DNA of 64,000 nucleotides, taken from Escherichia coli. Its GTDB lineage: Bacteria; Pseudomonadota; Gammaproteobacteria; Enterobacterales; Enterobacteriaceae. The stretch lies in NCBI RefSeq assembly GCF_041886205.1, contig NZ_CP169029.1; one strand, given 5' to 3'. The position numbers and the translations under genes were made by a program. This document shows positions 2,860 through 7,999 of the stretch, one piece after another. The notes under the pieces are model-generated. The model saw only the letters and a program-made list of their open reading frames with translations, searched no databases and was not told the origin of the DNA. How positions within the stretch are numbered: position 1 is the first letter of the stretch; each line of letters begins with the position of its first letter.

Positions 2860-3139
2860 TAACATTTATCTTAGTTATGGTTTAAGTGCATGAAAATAAT
2901 TGAGTTATATCATCATAGATTAAACGCTGTTATCTGCAATTAAGACTTTACTGAAAAGAAATGTAACAACTGTGAAAACTGAATAATAATATGAAAATAT
3001 TACAAATATTTGGCTGGTGTTATTGGTGTAATCGGTTTCAGTAGTGATGATAATTTGCGATAAAACGTGTTGAGGAAGAATGATGTTATTGTGCGGGCAG
3101 CTTTTTGCCGGATGCGGCGTGAATGCCTATCCACCGCGG

Positions 3140-3177
3140 TGAGGTAAAAGAAAAAGGCCAGCGCGAGGCTGGCCTTT
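3140..3177 (-). terminator. Rho-independent terminator downstream of metK
   Basis: On the minus strand: GC stem aggccagc/gctggcct followed by a U-rich tract (ttttcttttacc), directly after the metK stop at 3197. Confidence 0.7.
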
Positions 3178-3196: not shown

Positions 3197-4351
3197 TTAC
3201 TTCAGACCGGCAGCATCGCGCAGCAGCTGCGCTTTGTCGGTTTTTTCCCACGGGAAATGTTCACGACCAAAGTGACCGTATGCTGCGGTTTCTTTGTAGA
3301 TCGGGTGCAGCAGATCCAGCATCTGAATCAGACCGTATGGGCGCAGGTCGAAGAACTCACGTACCAGCAGAGTCAGTTGTTCAGAAGGCACTTTCTCAGT
3401 ACCGAAAGTTTCTACCATGATGGAGGTCGGTTCAGCCACGCCGATTGCGTAGGAAACCTGAATTTCACAACGATCGGCCAGGCCAGCAGCAACGATGTTT
3501 TTCGCGACATAACGTGCTGCGTAGGCTGCGGAACGGTCCACTTTTGATGGATCTTTACCAGAGAATGCTCCGCCACCGTGACGTGCCATGCCGCCGTAGG
3601 TATCAACGATAATTTTACGACCAGTCAGACCGCAGTCACCCATCGGGCCACCGATAACAAAACGACCGGTCGGGTTGATGAAGAATTTGGTGGCAGAAGT
3701 CAGCCATTCAGCGGGCAGAATCGGCTTGATGATCTCTTCCATTACCGCTTCTTGCAACGATTTCTGGTCGATCTCTTCAGAGTGCTGAGTGGAAAGCACG
3801 ACAGCATCGATACCAACGATTTTGCCGTCGTCATACTGAAAAGTCACCTGGCTTTTCGCGTCCGGGCGCAGCCACGGCAGAGTGCCGTTTTTACGCACTT
3901 CAGCCTGACGCTGTACCAGACGGTGTGCATAGGTGATAGGTGCTGGCATCAGCACGTCGGTTTCATTAGTTGCGTAGCCAAACATCAGACCCTGGTCACC
4001 CGCGCCCTGTTCCAGCGGATCGGCACGGTCAACGCCCTGGTTGATGTCAGGAGACTGTTTGCCGATAGCGCTCAGAACCGCACAGGAGTTAGCGTCAAAG
4101 CCCATGTCGGAATGCACATAGCCAATTTCGCGAACGGTGTTACGGGTGATCTCTTCGATGTCTACCCAGGCGCTGGTGGTGATTTCGCCGCCAACTAAAA
4201 CCATGCCGGTTTTTACGTAGGTTTCGCAAGCAACGCGTGCTTTCGGATCCTGTTCGAGGATCGCGTCTAAAACGGCATCAGAAATTTGGTCAGCAATTTT
4301 GTCAGGATGCCCTTCAGAGACGGACTCGGACGTAAAAAGGTGTTTTGCCAT
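3197..4351 (-). CDS. metK: S-adenosylmethionine synthetase, 384 aa
   Basis: ORF track 3197..4363; true start is the ATG at rc 4349-4351 giving [32 protein letters not shown]; GHPDK and [12 protein letters not shown] motifs present. Confidence 0.97.
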
Positions 4352-4406
4352 ATTTAATATCACCTAAAGAGAATTTGGTTAGCTCAAACTGTTGTGTGGA
4401 TTTTCT

Positions 4407-4658
4407 GTGGTAGCGGATCCTACCACGACTCTGCAGGTTAAAAACACTGGCAGTCTGAGTGTTAATCGGTATGGATGGATTAACATCTGGATGGCTATTT
4501 TAGGTCAATTCTTCACCCTATTTCCACTTTTTTTTGAATCGTGTCTCATTCTGTTAAAAACGTGGCTGGAAATTTTTCCTGACAATGCCGGCATTCTGCG
4601 TATTTATCTTTTGCAATTTTCTGCCATTGTGGGGTATAAAACGCGGCGCGCGGCTTAA
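4407..4658 (+). CDS. Small hypothetical protein (83 aa from GTG), possibly corresponds to yqgD; may not be expressed
   Basis: ORF track 4392..4658 (88 aa from TTG); GTG at 4407 gives 83 aa. Hydrophobic, no recognizable domain. Assignment is by position and length only. Confidence 0.3.
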
Positions 4659-4870
4659 ATAAAAAGCACACGACGTTTCTTTCGTGTTGCCACTTCCAGC
4701 CGGGTTGAAATCAGAGTTTTGGCTTGTGGGTTCGTCTTAACAGGCGGCCGTGGAGGTGATACGAAATAATGAACCGTTGTCTGCTGCTTAACCTGTCTCA
4801 CCGTTCTGGTGAAGATTCGTTCCCCGCACTCTGCATCTCTGCTTTGCATACCTGCCGATGTTATACCCAT
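4655..4870 (-). CDS. Small hypothetical protein (71 aa), possibly corresponds to yqgC
   Basis: ORF track 4655..4870 minus, ATG start; 71 aa, basic, no domain recognized; lies in the metK-speA divergent intergenic region. Confidence 0.3.
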
Positions 4871-5005
4871 CTCGGCGCTTCTCAGGATTCAAGAGCTGGT
4901 TACAGTTACTGAGGACTGAACAAGGGCGCTCTTGTAAAAACAAGAGTTTTCTCGTGGTTTCGCCGAACTGTCACACTTACGTTCGGTTATGTGCTTAATA
5001 ATGTT

Positions 5006-5137
5006 ATGAAAAAGAAACCGGTTGCGCAGTTGGAGCGTCAGCATTCACTGCTGGAAAATCCATGTGCTTATGGGTTGTTATCGCAGTTCCAGGCTGCGAT
5101 AGTCGTTAACTGTTTTACACTTAATAAAATAATTTGA
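5006..5137 (+). CDS. yqgB: Small leader ORF upstream of speA (43 aa), YqgB-like
   Basis: ATG at 5006 translates to [43 protein letters not shown], stop TGA at 5135-5137, 8 bp before the speA ATG; below the ORF-track size cut-off. Confidence 0.5.
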
Positions 5138-5145
5138 GGTTCGCT

Positions 5146-7122
5146 ATGTCTGACGACATGTCTATGGGTTTGCCTTCGTCAGCGGGCGAACACGGTGTAC
5201 TACGCTCCATGCAGGAGGTTGCAATGAGCTCCCAGGAAGCCAGCAAGATGCTGCGTACTTACAATATTGCCTGGTGGGGCAATAACTACTATGACGTTAA
5301 CGAGCTGGGCCACATCAGCGTGTGCCCGGACCCGGACGTCCCGGAAGCTCGCGTCGATCTCGCGCAGTTAGTGAAAACTCGTGAAGCACAGGGTCAGCGT
5401 CTGCCTGCACTGTTCTGTTTCCCACAGATCCTGCAGCACCGTTTGCGTTCCATTAACGCCGCGTTCAAACGTGCGAGGGAATCCTACGGCTATAACGGCG
5501 ATTACTTCCTTGTTTATCCGATCAAAGTTAACCAGCACCGCCGCGTGATTGAGTCCCTGATTCATTCGGGCGAACCGCTGGGTCTGGAAGCCGGTTCCAA
5601 AGCCGAGTTGATGGCAGTACTGGCACATGCTGGCATGACCCGTAGCGTCATCGTCTGCAACGGTTATAAAGACCGCGAATATATCCGCCTGGCATTAATT
5701 GGCGAGAAGATGGGGCACAAGGTCTATCTGGTCATTGAGAAGATGTCAGAAATCGCCATTGTGCTGGATGAAGCAGAACGTCTGAATGTCGTTCCTCGTC
5801 TGGGCGTGCGTGCACGTCTGGCTTCGCAGGGCTCGGGTAAATGGCAGTCCTCCGGCGGGGAAAAATCGAAGTTCGGCCTGGCTGCGACTCAGGTACTGCA
5901 ACTGGTTGAAACCCTGCGTGAAGCCGGGCGTCTCGACAGCCTGCAACTACTGCACTTCCACCTCGGTTCGCAGATGGCGAATATTCGCGATATCGCCACG
6001 GGCGTTCGTGAATCTGCGCGTTTCTATGTGGAACTGCACAAGCTGGGCGTCAATATTCAGTGCTTCGACGTCGGCGGCGGTCTGGGCGTGGACTATGAAG
6101 GCACCCGTTCGCAGTCCGACTGCTCCGTAAACTATGGCCTCAATGAATACGCCAACAACATCATCTGGGCGATTGGCGATGCGTGTGAAGAAAATGGTCT
6201 GCCGCATCCGACGGTAATCACCGAATCGGGCCGTGCGGTGACTGCGCACCATACCGTGCTGGTGTCGAATATCATCGGCGTGGAACGTAACGAATATACG
6301 GTGCCGACCGCGCCCGCAGAAGATGCGCCGCGCGCGCTGCAAAGCATGTGGGAAACCTGGCAGGAAATGCACGAACCGGGAACTCGCCGTTCTCTGCGTG
6401 AATGGTTACACGACAGCCAGATGGATCTGCACGACATTCATATCGGCTACTCTTCCGGCACCTTTAGCCTGCAAGAACGTGCATGGGCAGAACAACTCTA
6501 TCTGAGCATGTGCCATGAAGTGCAAAAGCAGCTGGATCCGCAAAACCGTGCGCATCGTCCGATAATCGACGAACTGCAGGAACGTATGGCGGACAAAATG
6601 TACGTCAATTTCTCGCTGTTCCAGTCAATGCCGGATGCATGGGGGATCGACCAGTTGTTCCCGGTTCTGCCGCTGGAAGGGCTGGATCAAGTGCCGGAAC
6701 GTCGCGCAGTGCTGCTGGATATTACCTGTGACTCTGACGGTGCTATCGACCACTATATTGATGGTGATGGTATTGCCACGACAATGCCAATGCCGGAGTA
6801 CGATCCAGAGAATCCGCCGATGCTCGGTTTCTTTATGGTCGGCGCATATCAGGAGATCCTTGGCAATATGCACAACCTGTTCGGTGATACCGAAGCGGTT
6901 GACGTGTTCGTGTTCCCTGACGGTAGCGTAGAAGTAGAACTGTCTGACGAAGGCGATACCGTGGCGGACATGCTGCAATATGTACAGCTCGATCCGAAAA
7001 CGCTGTTAACCCAGTTCCGCGATCAAGTGAAGAAAACCGATCTTGATGCTGAACTGCAACAACAGTTCCTTGAAGAGTTCGAGGCAGGTTTGTACGGTTA
7101 TACCTATCTTGAAGATGAATAA
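5146..7122 (+). CDS. speA: Biosynthetic arginine decarboxylase (PLP-dependent), 658 aa
   Basis: ORF track 5134..7122 starts at a TTG; ATG at 5146 gives [56 protein letters not shown], the SpeA N-terminus; length matches 658 aa. Confidence 0.97.
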
Positions 7123-7267: not shown

Positions 7268-7999
7268 ATGAAAAAATGGAAAGTACGTAGCGCGTTGGTG
7301 GCATTAATCGTGCTGCTGGCCGGTTGTTCCAGTAATGCGCAGTATAATAGCAGTGCATCGGGCAATGTCGGCACTGCCTGGGGTGGGGATGTGCACTCAA
7401 CGGTTCAGGGCGTATCTGCTGAGCGAGCCTGGCGCGATCCGGCAGAGATGATCGTTATTAGTTATTCGACTAATGTTCCTTCCGGCTACGACCGCGTTTA
7501 TAGCATTCGTATTAACGAACTGGAATATGCTATTCGCGATGGTAATTTTAATTCTCTACCTATTACGCGGATTTATGATTCATCCAATAATGAACCACGC
7601 TATATTGTCCATGCCAGAGTCGGAATGAATTATCAATTATATGTCCGTAATTACAGTCGTAACACCAACTACGAGATCGTTGCTACGGTTGATGGCATGG
7701 ATGTGCTGAACGGCAAGCAAGGTTCGCTGAATAACAACGGCTATATTGTGAATGCCGGAGATTCGTTAGCGATTAAAGGATTCCGCAAAGATAAACATAC
7801 CGAAGCGGCTTTTCAGTTCGCCAACGTTGCTGATTCCTACGCAGCCAATTCGGCGCAAGGCGATGTGCGTAATACCGGTGTAATCGGCTTTGCCGCCTTT
7901 GAATTACAAGGCCCGGCGCAAAACGCGCTGCCGCCGTGCTCTGGACAAGCCTTTCCGGCAGATAACAATGGCTATGCGCCGCCACCGTGTCGGAAATAG
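7268..7999 (+). CDS. Predicted lipoprotein of unknown function, 243 aa (accessory gene between speA and speB)
   Basis: ATG at 7268 preceded by RBS agaggga; N-terminus MKKWKVRSALVALIVLLAGCSS has a signal peptide with lipobox LAG-C; mature part rich in N/S/Y/G; two Cys near the C-terminus (PPCSGQAFPADNNGYAPPPC). No family recognized by eye. Confidence 0.75.
   Translation: MKKWKVRSALVALIVLLAGCSSNAQYNSSASGNVGTAWGGDVHSTVQGVSAERAWRDPAEMIVISYSTNVPSGYDRVYSIRINELEYAIRDGNFNSLPITRIYDSSNNEPRYIVHARVGMNYQLYVRNYSRNTNYEIVATVDGMDVLNGKQGSLNNNGYIVNAGDSLAIKGFRKDKHTEAAFQFANVADSYAANSAQGDVRNTGVIGFAAFELQGPAQNALPPCSGQAFPADNNGYAPPPCRK

Follow-up and report, generated by a model that had tools for sequence, protein, structure and literature searches.

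INTRODUCTION

Leaders in which a translated upstream open reading frame (uORF) governs the gene behind it, and in which termination of transcription depends on Rho, have been described for mdtU-mdtJI, tnaC-tnaA and speFL-speF. The first of these serves the spermidine exporter of Escherichia coli, and speFL also belongs to polyamine metabolism. They are the closest described relatives of the element considered here, the 5′ untranslated region (5′ UTR), or leader, of speA, the gene for biosynthetic arginine decarboxylase. This leader lies in the 794-bp spacer between the divergent genes metK and speA (positions 4352-5145 of a 64,000-nt stretch of E. coli contig NZ_CP169029.1, assembly GCF_041886205.1; the whole stretch is called the window below). 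The arrangement upstream of speA resembles these uORF-controlled, Rho-dependent leaders and is not that of a classical trp-type attenuator. Adams et al. (2021; PMC7815308) list speFL as a leader peptide and place yqgB-speA among their candidate uORF-dependent regulatory sequences, yqgB being one of four small open reading frames (ORFs) in the spacer.

The spacer consists of two back-to-back control regions, a metK promoter side and a speA promoter and leader. In its left-hand ~300 bp the minus strand carries the promoter and 5′ UTR of metK with operators that resemble Met boxes, and the plus strand carries the speA promoter. Very probably, the region as a whole comprises this metK promoter and a speA leader with two real uORFs, yqgG and yqgB, while the other two ORFs, yqgC and yqgD, are spurious. 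When this assignment is combined with a mechanism in which translation of the uORFs gates Rho-dependent termination and yqgB is translationally coupled to speA, we put the probability of the whole at roughly 0.6. All four ORFs have been annotated at one time or another and the Rho dependence of speA is published; the two-uORF architecture with its conserved geometry is the part not previously described.

THE SPACER AND ITS SMALL ORFs

The metK-speA region was collected from 80 species-representative genomes of the Enterobacteriaceae, among them members of Escherichia, Salmonella, Citrobacter, Klebsiella, Enterobacter, Kosakonia and Raoultella, and both genes were found in 78. The spacer is syntenic across these 78 species, ranges from 633 to 1039 bp in length and is 62-97% identical to that of E. 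coli throughout. Within E. coli it hardly varies, 5412 of 5426 complete genomes matching it with at least 99% identity. Searches by tblastn match all four ORFs in every species, a result that is misleading because the whole spacer is conserved. ORF integrity and the pattern of substitution were used instead, and these do separate the four. Ratios of non-synonymous to synonymous substitution rates (dN/dS) and counts of alignment cells with an in-frame stop codon (stop cells) refer throughout to the 74 species outside Escherichia.

The existence of ORFs of this size in the spacer is no more than chance would give. When the spacer was shuffled 2000 times with its dinucleotides preserved, the expectation was about 4.2 ORFs of 43 amino acids or more; one or more of at least 83 amino acids turned up in 40% of the shuffles, and two of at least 71 amino acids in 26%.

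The first-pass annotation of this DNA, made by a model from the letters alone, had described a metK-speA divergent control region, a description that is borne out, with three small ORFs, at 5006-5137 (plus), 4407-4658 (plus) and 4655-4870 (minus). All three are where it put them. The 43-codon ORF, which is yqgB, runs from an ATG at 5006 to a TGA at 5135-5137, leaving exactly 8 nt (5138-5145) before the speA ATG at 5146. The convergent pair, yqgD (4392/4407-4658) and yqgC, share the 4 bp at 4655-4658. Its comparison of the 43-codon ORF with a leader peptide was apt, since yqgB sits in the speA 5′ UTR and its frame closes at the start of speA in all 79 sequences. Its list of three was incomplete, for the fourth ORF, yqgG, was overlooked, as was the fact that the right-hand ~500 nt are one long structured leader RNA. 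RefSeq annotates yqgD, yqgB and yqgG at the locus and carries no current annotation of yqgC. The remark that the small ORFs have no recognizable domains is wrong only in a trivial sense: Pfam has eponymous families for YqgB (PF11036), YqgG (PF23505) and YqgC (PF17430), and NCBIfam has NF033844 for YqgB.

TWO CONSERVED uORFs IN THE speA LEADER

The overlooked ORF, yqgG, behaves like a real translated uORF. Its 47-codon product scores 129.9 bits against PF23505 (gathering cut-off 27), its ATG is kept in 77/78 species and the ORF is intact in 76/78. The dN/dS is 0.47 (0.25-0.79), and only 2 in-frame stop cells are found, against 44-84 in the other five frames. Near the C-terminus it is the amino acids rather than the codons that persist: Arg42 is kept in 79/79 sequences by way of AGG, AGA, CGG and CGA, Asp40 is encoded by GAT or GAC in a ratio of 41:37, and Ser41, Ala43 and Gly44 wobble at the third position. 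Judged by this codon usage, the C-terminal QDSRAG motif is selected at the peptide level. In codons 28-39, by comparison, the third position is conserved along with the first two, and the stretch falls on RNA stems. A tagged protein (sequential peptide affinity, SPA, tag) has been detected, as have peaks of ribosome initiation (Weaver et al. 2019). YqgG has four dispersed Arg codons, with no tandem Arg and no other regulatory run.

The second uORF, yqgB, matches NF033844 with 90.1 bits (cut-off 35) and PF11036 with 113.3 bits (cut-off 24). Every one of the 78 species has its ATG, and 68 keep both start and length. The conservation and codon-substitution analysis that the first-pass annotation had proposed for its small ORFs thus came out in favour of yqgB, with a dN/dS of 0.59 (0.34-1.10) and no in-frame stop cells as against 21-109 in the other five frames, and, as described below, against the convergent pair. 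Val6, Ala7, Val33 and Val34 show synonymous wobble at the third position, while the stretches G-L-L-S and A-I, where conservation extends to every codon position, overlap RNA stems. There is a KKK at the N-terminus, and neither a tandem Arg nor any other regulatory codon run. YqgB is cited by Adams et al. as experimentally validated, and its start codon has been footprinted in a cell-free system by INRI-seq. A two-codon mini-ORF at 5001-5009 (plus strand) overlaps the yqgB start; it reads ATG TTA TGA in E. coli and ATG ATA TGA in most other species, and is present in most, not all, of the 56 leaders aligned below.

The most constant property of yqgB is where it stops. Its stop codon lies 8 nt before the speA ATG in 57 sequences, whereas the ORF overlaps that ATG by 8 nt in 21 and by 11 nt in one (AUGUCUGA in the overlapping form), so that all 79 are of one kind or the other. 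Species whose yqgB has acquired repeat insertions of 50-130 nt in its 3′ end retain a frame that closes at the start of speA. A C-terminus that accepts insertions as long as the frame closes there indicates that selection acts on the place where translation stops and not on the protein.

This last observation bears on the strongest of the rival explanations, in which YqgB, and perhaps YqgG, are trans-acting small proteins encoded at the head of a yqgG-yqgB-speA operon, the product mattering and not the act of translation. The curated families carry the names ‘acid stress response protein’ and ‘virulence promoting factor’, which are annotations, and a yqgB deletion gives acid and colistin phenotypes. 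In Salmonella the deletion lowers speA and speB mRNA and enzyme levels, however, and putrescine or spermidine relieves the phenotype, a result that fits a cis effect on speA; no trans-complementation was found in that paper. Equally, the deletion is not a clean test of uORF translation, because it removes leader RNA as well. The proteins can be detected when tagged, binding of a drug to YqgB has been published and particular residues are under peptide-level selection, all of which a functional product would explain; but the dN/dS values are only 0.47-0.59, the conservation is patchy and partly accounted for by RNA stems, overexpressed YqgB induces heat-shock proteins of the kind that respond to aggregation, and the C-terminus accepts the insertions just described. 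Taken together, a trans-acting role is unlikely. The phenotypes credited to the YqgB protein, namely acid sensitivity and colistin re-sensitisation, and with them its proposal as a drug target, may for the most part be due to effects in cis on speA and on polyamine synthesis. There are grounds for assigning yqgG and yqgB to the speA leader and not treating them as stand-alone genes.

RHO-DEPENDENT TERMINATION IN THE speA LEADER

The extent of the leader follows from published constructs. The primer with which Adams et al. (PMC7815308) cloned the ‘entire 5′ UTR’ of speA begins GCGCGGCTTAAATAAAAAGC (GCGCGGCTT), that is, at window position 4648, and their fusion ends at 5145. The primers span a speA leader of 498 nt that contains both yqgG and yqgB. 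In the 79 sequences little or no variation is seen in the core TTGC of the speA -35 element (TTGCA(A/T)) or in the -10 element and the GC-rich discriminator behind it.

With lacZ fusions and northern blots, Adams et al. demonstrated Rho-dependent premature termination at speA, and the short 5′ transcripts were most striking for this gene. Their rhoR66S and bicyclomycin data cover the speA 5′ UTR. Among fusions that carry nothing but the 5′ UTR, the Rho effect is reported as lost for cyaA and eptB alone, which implies that the speA event lies within the 5′ UTR. A region of Rho termination is given at K-12 coordinate 3086055(-), about window position 5002, with a score of 3.69 and p = 8.7e-20. 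The same source lists two Term-seq 3′ ends: one at 3085854(-), equivalent to 5203 and thus 57 nt into speA, with a Rho score of 3.09 and the flag ‘uORF’, and one at 4762, 4 nt past the helix that sequesters the yqgG Shine-Dalgarno sequence. The speA leader can accordingly be compared with a uORF-controlled, Rho-dependent leader point by point. The uORFs lie within the 5′ UTR of the same transcript, behind a conserved promoter upstream of 4648; they are translated, as the literature and the near stop-free frames attest; and termination is Rho-dependent, a point taken wholly from the literature.

Two side observations concern these 3′ ends. Transcripts ending at 4762 would leave a stable, structured 5′ fragment of ~115 nt (4648-4762), which might correspond to one of the short transcripts reported as abundant, or to a small RNA derived from the 5′ UTR. 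The Rho-associated end at 5203 falls between the speA ATG at 5146 and a published in-frame internal start at Met27 (5224), which yields an isoform without the 26 N-terminal residues; the 3′ end and the internal start might be linked.

STRUCTURE OF THE LEADER RNA

Fifty-six non-redundant leaders were aligned, a consensus structure was obtained with RNAalifold and its pairs were then counted. Paired cells amount to 94.6%, compared with ~40% when the partners are slid by 1-3 columns, and 195 cells are changed on both sides of a pair, against 77±7 in shuffles. The whole leader also folds better than its shuffles (z = -2.93). From the 5′ end, the structure (Table 1) begins with hairpin P1 and a closing helix that pairs an anti-Shine-Dalgarno sequence with the Shine-Dalgarno sequence of yqgG and encloses a variable-loop arm and hairpin P3. 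A further hairpin lies within yqgG, and a terminator-like hairpin stands 15 nt behind the yqgG stop in E. coli (8-26 nt in 76/79 sequences). The loop of this last hairpin varies in sequence and length and the U-rich block downstream of it is invariant; the Term-seq data that Adams et al. give for the locus list no 3′ end at 4928-4947. One more covarying hairpin precedes yqgB, and two invariant helices involve yqgB itself. The sole C-rich, G-poor stretch of the leader, which by composition only resembles a Rho utilization (rut) site, extends over ~4770-4890 inside yqgG, with a C/G ratio of up to 2.1.

A structure as well conserved as this invites the reading that the small ORFs are passengers and that the spacer is conserved purely for its DNA sites and a structured leader RNA, for example one that is riboswitch-like or bound by a protein. 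It would account for conservation of the whole spacer in all frames, for the covariation of several hairpins and for the many ‘conserved codons’ that are conserved at all three positions, and ORFs of such size do arise by chance. It would not account for the frames of yqgG and yqgB having 2 and 0 stop cells when the other five have 21-109, for start codons kept in 77-78/78 species, for third-position wobble and AGR/CGN switching that preserve the amino acids, or for a yqgB frame held open as far as the speA start through independent insertions. Both products or their start codons have, moreover, been seen experimentally, and an Rfam scan of 3900-5500 (E <= 1) matched no known RNA family. On this evidence the passenger explanation is quite improbable, and translated uORFs within a structured leader remain the preferred reading.

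Repeat elements of ~50-130 nt occupy three positions in the leaders of various Citrobacter, Enterobacter and other species (alignment columns 10-140, 402-526 and 806-935). Examples, by our handles for the species, are L006:1888-2010 and L015:1767-1890, the insertions within yqgG of L015 and L027, and those at the yqgB 3′ end of L023, L049, L053 and L075. These elements, with the core CCCCAGTCACTTAC...GTAAGCTCCCGGGGA, resemble the enterobacterial repetitive intergenic consensus (ERIC).

yqgD AND yqgC ARE JUDGED NOT TO BE GENES

The first-pass annotation left open whether the two convergent ORFs are translated, and the answer is negative. Start and length of yqgD are kept in 3/78 species, all of them Escherichia; the same GTG is present in 7/78 and a start codon of any kind in 24/78. 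An ATG for yqgC is found in 74/78 species, its start and length in only 8/78, and the ORF ranges from 2 to 140 codons. The dN/dS is 0.96 for yqgD and 0.88 for yqgC, with 64 and 132 in-frame stop cells. The nucleotides of yqgD are conserved and its frame is not, because the ORF crosses the metK 5′ UTR and promoter and then the speA promoter. YqgD matches no family in Pfam or NCBIfam, and the ORF is frameshifted in a natural E. coli strain, OkiPb01713, in which YqgG and YqgB are identical to those described here. For yqgC, Weaver et al. (2019) saw no ribosome density and did not detect the tagged protein. Measured against what marks a coding gene, namely a maintained ORF, purifying selection and translation, both fail. 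They look like chance ORFs riding on promoters, leader RNA structure and a uORF on the opposite strand, and the conservation captured in PF17430 is probably the shadow of yqgG and of the leader RNA structure.

That yqgC and yqgD are genuine young genes confined to Escherichia, as the K-12 annotation and PF17430 imply and as their intactness among the four other Escherichia species sampled (three for yqgD), the continued RefSeq annotation of yqgD, the Pfam family for YqgC and their listing in transcriptome tables might suggest, is very improbable indeed, since an intact ORF says little in a genus whose members are 95-97% identical, neither ORF is under purifying selection, yqgC has neither ribosome density nor a tagged product, yqgD lies across two promoters and is frameshifted in one E. 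coli strain, ORFs of such size are expected by chance, and the family for YqgC is explained by conservation of yqgG opposite. There are sequence-based grounds to retire both, and with yqgC its family PF17430.

A MODEL FOR CONTROL OF speA

Two elements of a mechanism have been shown by others, namely termination by Rho inside the leader (Adams et al. 2021; PMC7815308) and translation of the uORFs. The particular steps of gating and coupling that are set out here are tentative, and we give them slightly less than even odds. Ribosomes on yqgG would mask the rut-like tract and with it the loading of Rho, because the only C-rich, G-poor stretch lies in this uORF. Translation of yqgG would itself be conditional, gated by the closing helix, because its Shine-Dalgarno sequence pairs with the invariant anti-Shine-Dalgarno sequence in the conserved 5′ domain. 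A ribosome finishing yqgG would stand 15 nt short of the conserved hairpin with its U-rich tract, a probable pause site for polymerase at which Rho could act. Further downstream, translation of yqgB that ends in or across the speA ribosome-binding site would couple translation of speA to the uORF and shield early speA from Rho; we infer this coupling because the geometry of the yqgB end is conserved in every sequence. Polyamine or arginine status is the natural candidate for the signal.

Several observations weigh against this model or the assignments beneath it. The speA transcription start was deduced from a cloning primer and not read from transcription start site data, and the coordinate of the Rho region is coarse, coming from 800-nt windows. 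The RNA structure was derived from the same alignment that was used to score it. Its 5′ domain alone folds no better than shuffles (z -0.99), so that no autonomous aptamer is claimed, and the anti-Shine-Dalgarno/Shine-Dalgarno, GGUUUC/GAAACC and UUAUCGC/GCGAUAG helices offer no covariation evidence because their arms are invariant. Three species (L071, L073 and L077) are without the 5′ domain, and two Citrobacter (L015 and L027) carry an insertion that removes the C-terminal motif of YqgG; these parts of the leader are therefore dispensable in some lineages. As for yqgB, its dN/dS interval reaches 1.10, the conserved stretches of its peptide partly overlap RNA stems, its start was undetected by Ribo-RET in vivo, and overexpression of YqgB brings on a response of the aggregation type (heat-shock proteins) and not of the arrest type.

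A more specific version of the model is that YqgG, and possibly YqgB, is a nascent peptide that senses a metabolite, a stall 8-26 nt before the hairpin setting the access of Rho to the speA leader. The YqgG C-terminus, G-A-S-Q-D-S-R-A-G followed by 0-6 residues and the stop, would respond to polyamines, arginine or agmatine by halting the ribosome, and the invariant anti-Shine-Dalgarno 5′ domain would add a second input. This version is speculative and we think it unlikely. If true, it would explain how putrescine represses arginine decarboxylase, an effect long known from the older literature for which a mechanism has been missing, and would make the speA leader the third, sequence-unrelated leader of the arrest type in enterobacterial polyamine metabolism, beside speFL and mdtU.

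The arrest motif of SecM is FxxxxWIxxxxGIRAGP, with the codon for the terminal Pro in the A site. YqgG was considered as an arrest peptide of this type and set aside: it shares Q-x-x-R-A-G, followed by 0-6 variable residues, and is without the W-I pair and the Pro, so that the resemblance is a loose one and serves as no more than a lead.

THE metK SIDE AND OTHER FEATURES

MetJ controls metK, and a run of four tandem octamers on the minus strand, just downstream of the predicted -10 element of metK, resembles Met boxes. Against AGACGTCT they match at 5/8, 5/8, 4/8 and 4/8 positions, and they are assigned as putative MetJ boxes. The block formed by promoter and boxes is among the best conserved of the spacer, with identities of 0.90-0.98 over 4452-4501.

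Read on the minus strand, the P1 hairpin (4668-4687) and the T-run at 4658-4667 look like an intrinsic terminator (ACACGAAAGAAACGTCGTGT GCTTTTTATT), and a conserved A-run lies upstream of P1. Such an element could halt antisense transcription short of the metK promoter; the Term-seq rows of Adams et al. (PMC7815308) for this locus contain no minus-strand 3′ end (K-12 plus strand) at 4658-4687. A REP-like (repetitive extragenic palindrome) sequence, GCCGGATGCGGCGTGAATGCCTATCC, was spotted by eye at ~3100-3140, just downstream of metK and between metK and galP.

On the other flank, a 243-amino-acid ORF at 7268-7999 (plus strand) lies between speA and speB. It has a lipoprotein-like N-terminus (MKKWKVRSALVALIVLLAGCSS...), is called ‘hypothetical protein’ by RefSeq and has no NCBIfam match above cut-off; K-12 is not known to have a gene at this position.

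Two forms of control suggested by the literature were set aside. The genes yqgC and yqgD appear in published SOS lists, but the spacer contains no LexA site of the form CTG-N10-CAG, and the number of such sites across the window is at chance level. A published mention of yqgB in connection with sigma-54 concerns a site ~5 kb away inside endA and is irrelevant to the spacer.

Table 1. Features of the metK-speA spacer and its flanking genes, in window coordinates
Feature	Position	Strand	Description and basis
metK (methionine adenosyltransferase)	3197-4351	-	Left boundary of the spacer; ORF list and RefSeq annotation of the identical locus
yqgD, 83-codon ORF	4407-4658	+	GTG start; judged not a gene; covers metK 5′ UTR/promoter (antisense) and speA promoter
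Tandem 8-bp Met-box-like repeats	4496 down to 4465	-	AGCCATCC AGATGTTA ATCCATCC ATACCGAT; octamer scoring
Predicted metK promoter	4465-4526	-	-35 TGGAAA 4526-4521, -10 TAAAAT 4502-4497, predicted start near 4490; consensus scan
speA promoter	4611-4648	+	-35 TTGCAA 4611-4616, 18-nt spacer, -10 TATAAA 4635-4640, GC-rich discriminator, start ~4648
speA leader RNA (5′ UTR), 498 nt	4648-5145	+	Fusion primers, Rho termination data, fold z-score
yqgC, 71-codon ORF	4655-4870	-	Antisense to yqgG; judged not a gene
Hairpin P1	4666-4690	+	2 pairs with double changes, GC to AU in 8 sequences and AU to GC in 7; terminator-like on the minus strand (4687-4668)
Closing helix	4691-4758	+	CACUUCC 4691-4697 with yqgG Shine-Dalgarno GGAGGUG 4752-4758; 99.5% paired, both arms invariant; also in the single-sequence minimum free energy fold
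Hairpin P3	4728-4750	+	6/9 pairs changed on both sides
yqgG, 47-codon uORF	4769-4912	+	Antisense to yqgC; RefSeq, PF23505, conservation
Hairpin within yqgG	4795-4814	+	5/8 pairs covary
Terminator-like hairpin	4920-4961	+	Core 4928-4947, extended 4920-4955, then invariant UUUUCUCGUGGUUUC; terminator scan; UA to CG in 19 sequences
Helix GGUUUC with GAAACC	4956-4961 with 5014-5019	+	Second arm in yqgB codons 3-5; 99.7-100% paired, invariant
Hairpin CCGAAC...GUUCGG	4963-4986	+	Between terminator-like hairpin and yqgB; 3/6 pairs changed on both sides
yqgB, 43-codon uORF	5006-5137	+	NF033844, PF11036; UGA stop inside speA Shine-Dalgarno (UGAGG, 5135-5139)
Helix UUAUCGC with GCGAUAG	5078-5084 with 5096-5102	+	Hairpin inside yqgB; 99.7-100% paired, invariant
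speA (biosynthetic arginine decarboxylase)	5146-7122	+	ORF list and annotation

COMPARISON WITH KNOWN LEADERS

Among the described systems, the classical attenuators trpL, hisL and pheL share with the speA leader a small ORF, here yqgG, followed by a hairpin, here the covarying one at 4928-4947, and a U-tract (UUUUCUCGU). They differ in having a run of regulatory codons, which YqgG and YqgB lack, and the U-tract of the speA leader is poor, termination being Rho-dependent according to the published data. A trp-style antiterminator was considered as well, since CAAGAGC at 4890-4896, near the end of yqgG, is perfectly complementary in E. coli to the 5′ arm of the hairpin (4928-4934), yet this pairing is no better than in shuffles. 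Over 79 species the mean energy is -12.4 kcal/mol against -13.1 when shuffled, with a mean z of +0.29 and 0/79 species below -1.64.

The likeness to tnaC-tnaA and speFL-speF is closer. In these too the leader ORF is short, its C-terminal peptide is conserved, its stop lies near the element that decides on termination, and Rho is the terminator. The sequences of YqgG and YqgB are unrelated to those of TnaC and SpeFL, however, and overexpression of YqgB gave no signature of the arrest type.

With mdtU-mdtJI (Adams et al. 2021; PMC7815308) the speA locus has in common a long 5′ UTR ahead of a gene of the polyamine pathway, a conserved and translated uORF, and premature termination by Rho that leaves a 3′ end shortly after the start of the downstream ORF. 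A start-codon mutant of mdtU and the dependence on spermidine were examined in that study, whereas for speA the data concern Rho dependence only. The speA leader also has two uORFs where mdtJI has one, and the logic of feedback would be the opposite, because a biosynthetic gene should fall in expression when polyamines are high.

The last comparison is with uORF-gene pairs that are translationally coupled. The shared trait is the position of the yqgB stop within the speA Shine-Dalgarno sequence, or of the ORF across the speA start, in 79/79 sequences; speA also has a good Shine-Dalgarno sequence of its own and a second, internal start at Met27. With two uORFs, a domain that sequesters a Shine-Dalgarno sequence, covarying hairpins and Rho dependence, the speA leader ranks among the more elaborate conserved 5′ UTRs of E. 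coli, and it offers a concrete route by which polyamine or arginine status could feed back on arginine decarboxylase.

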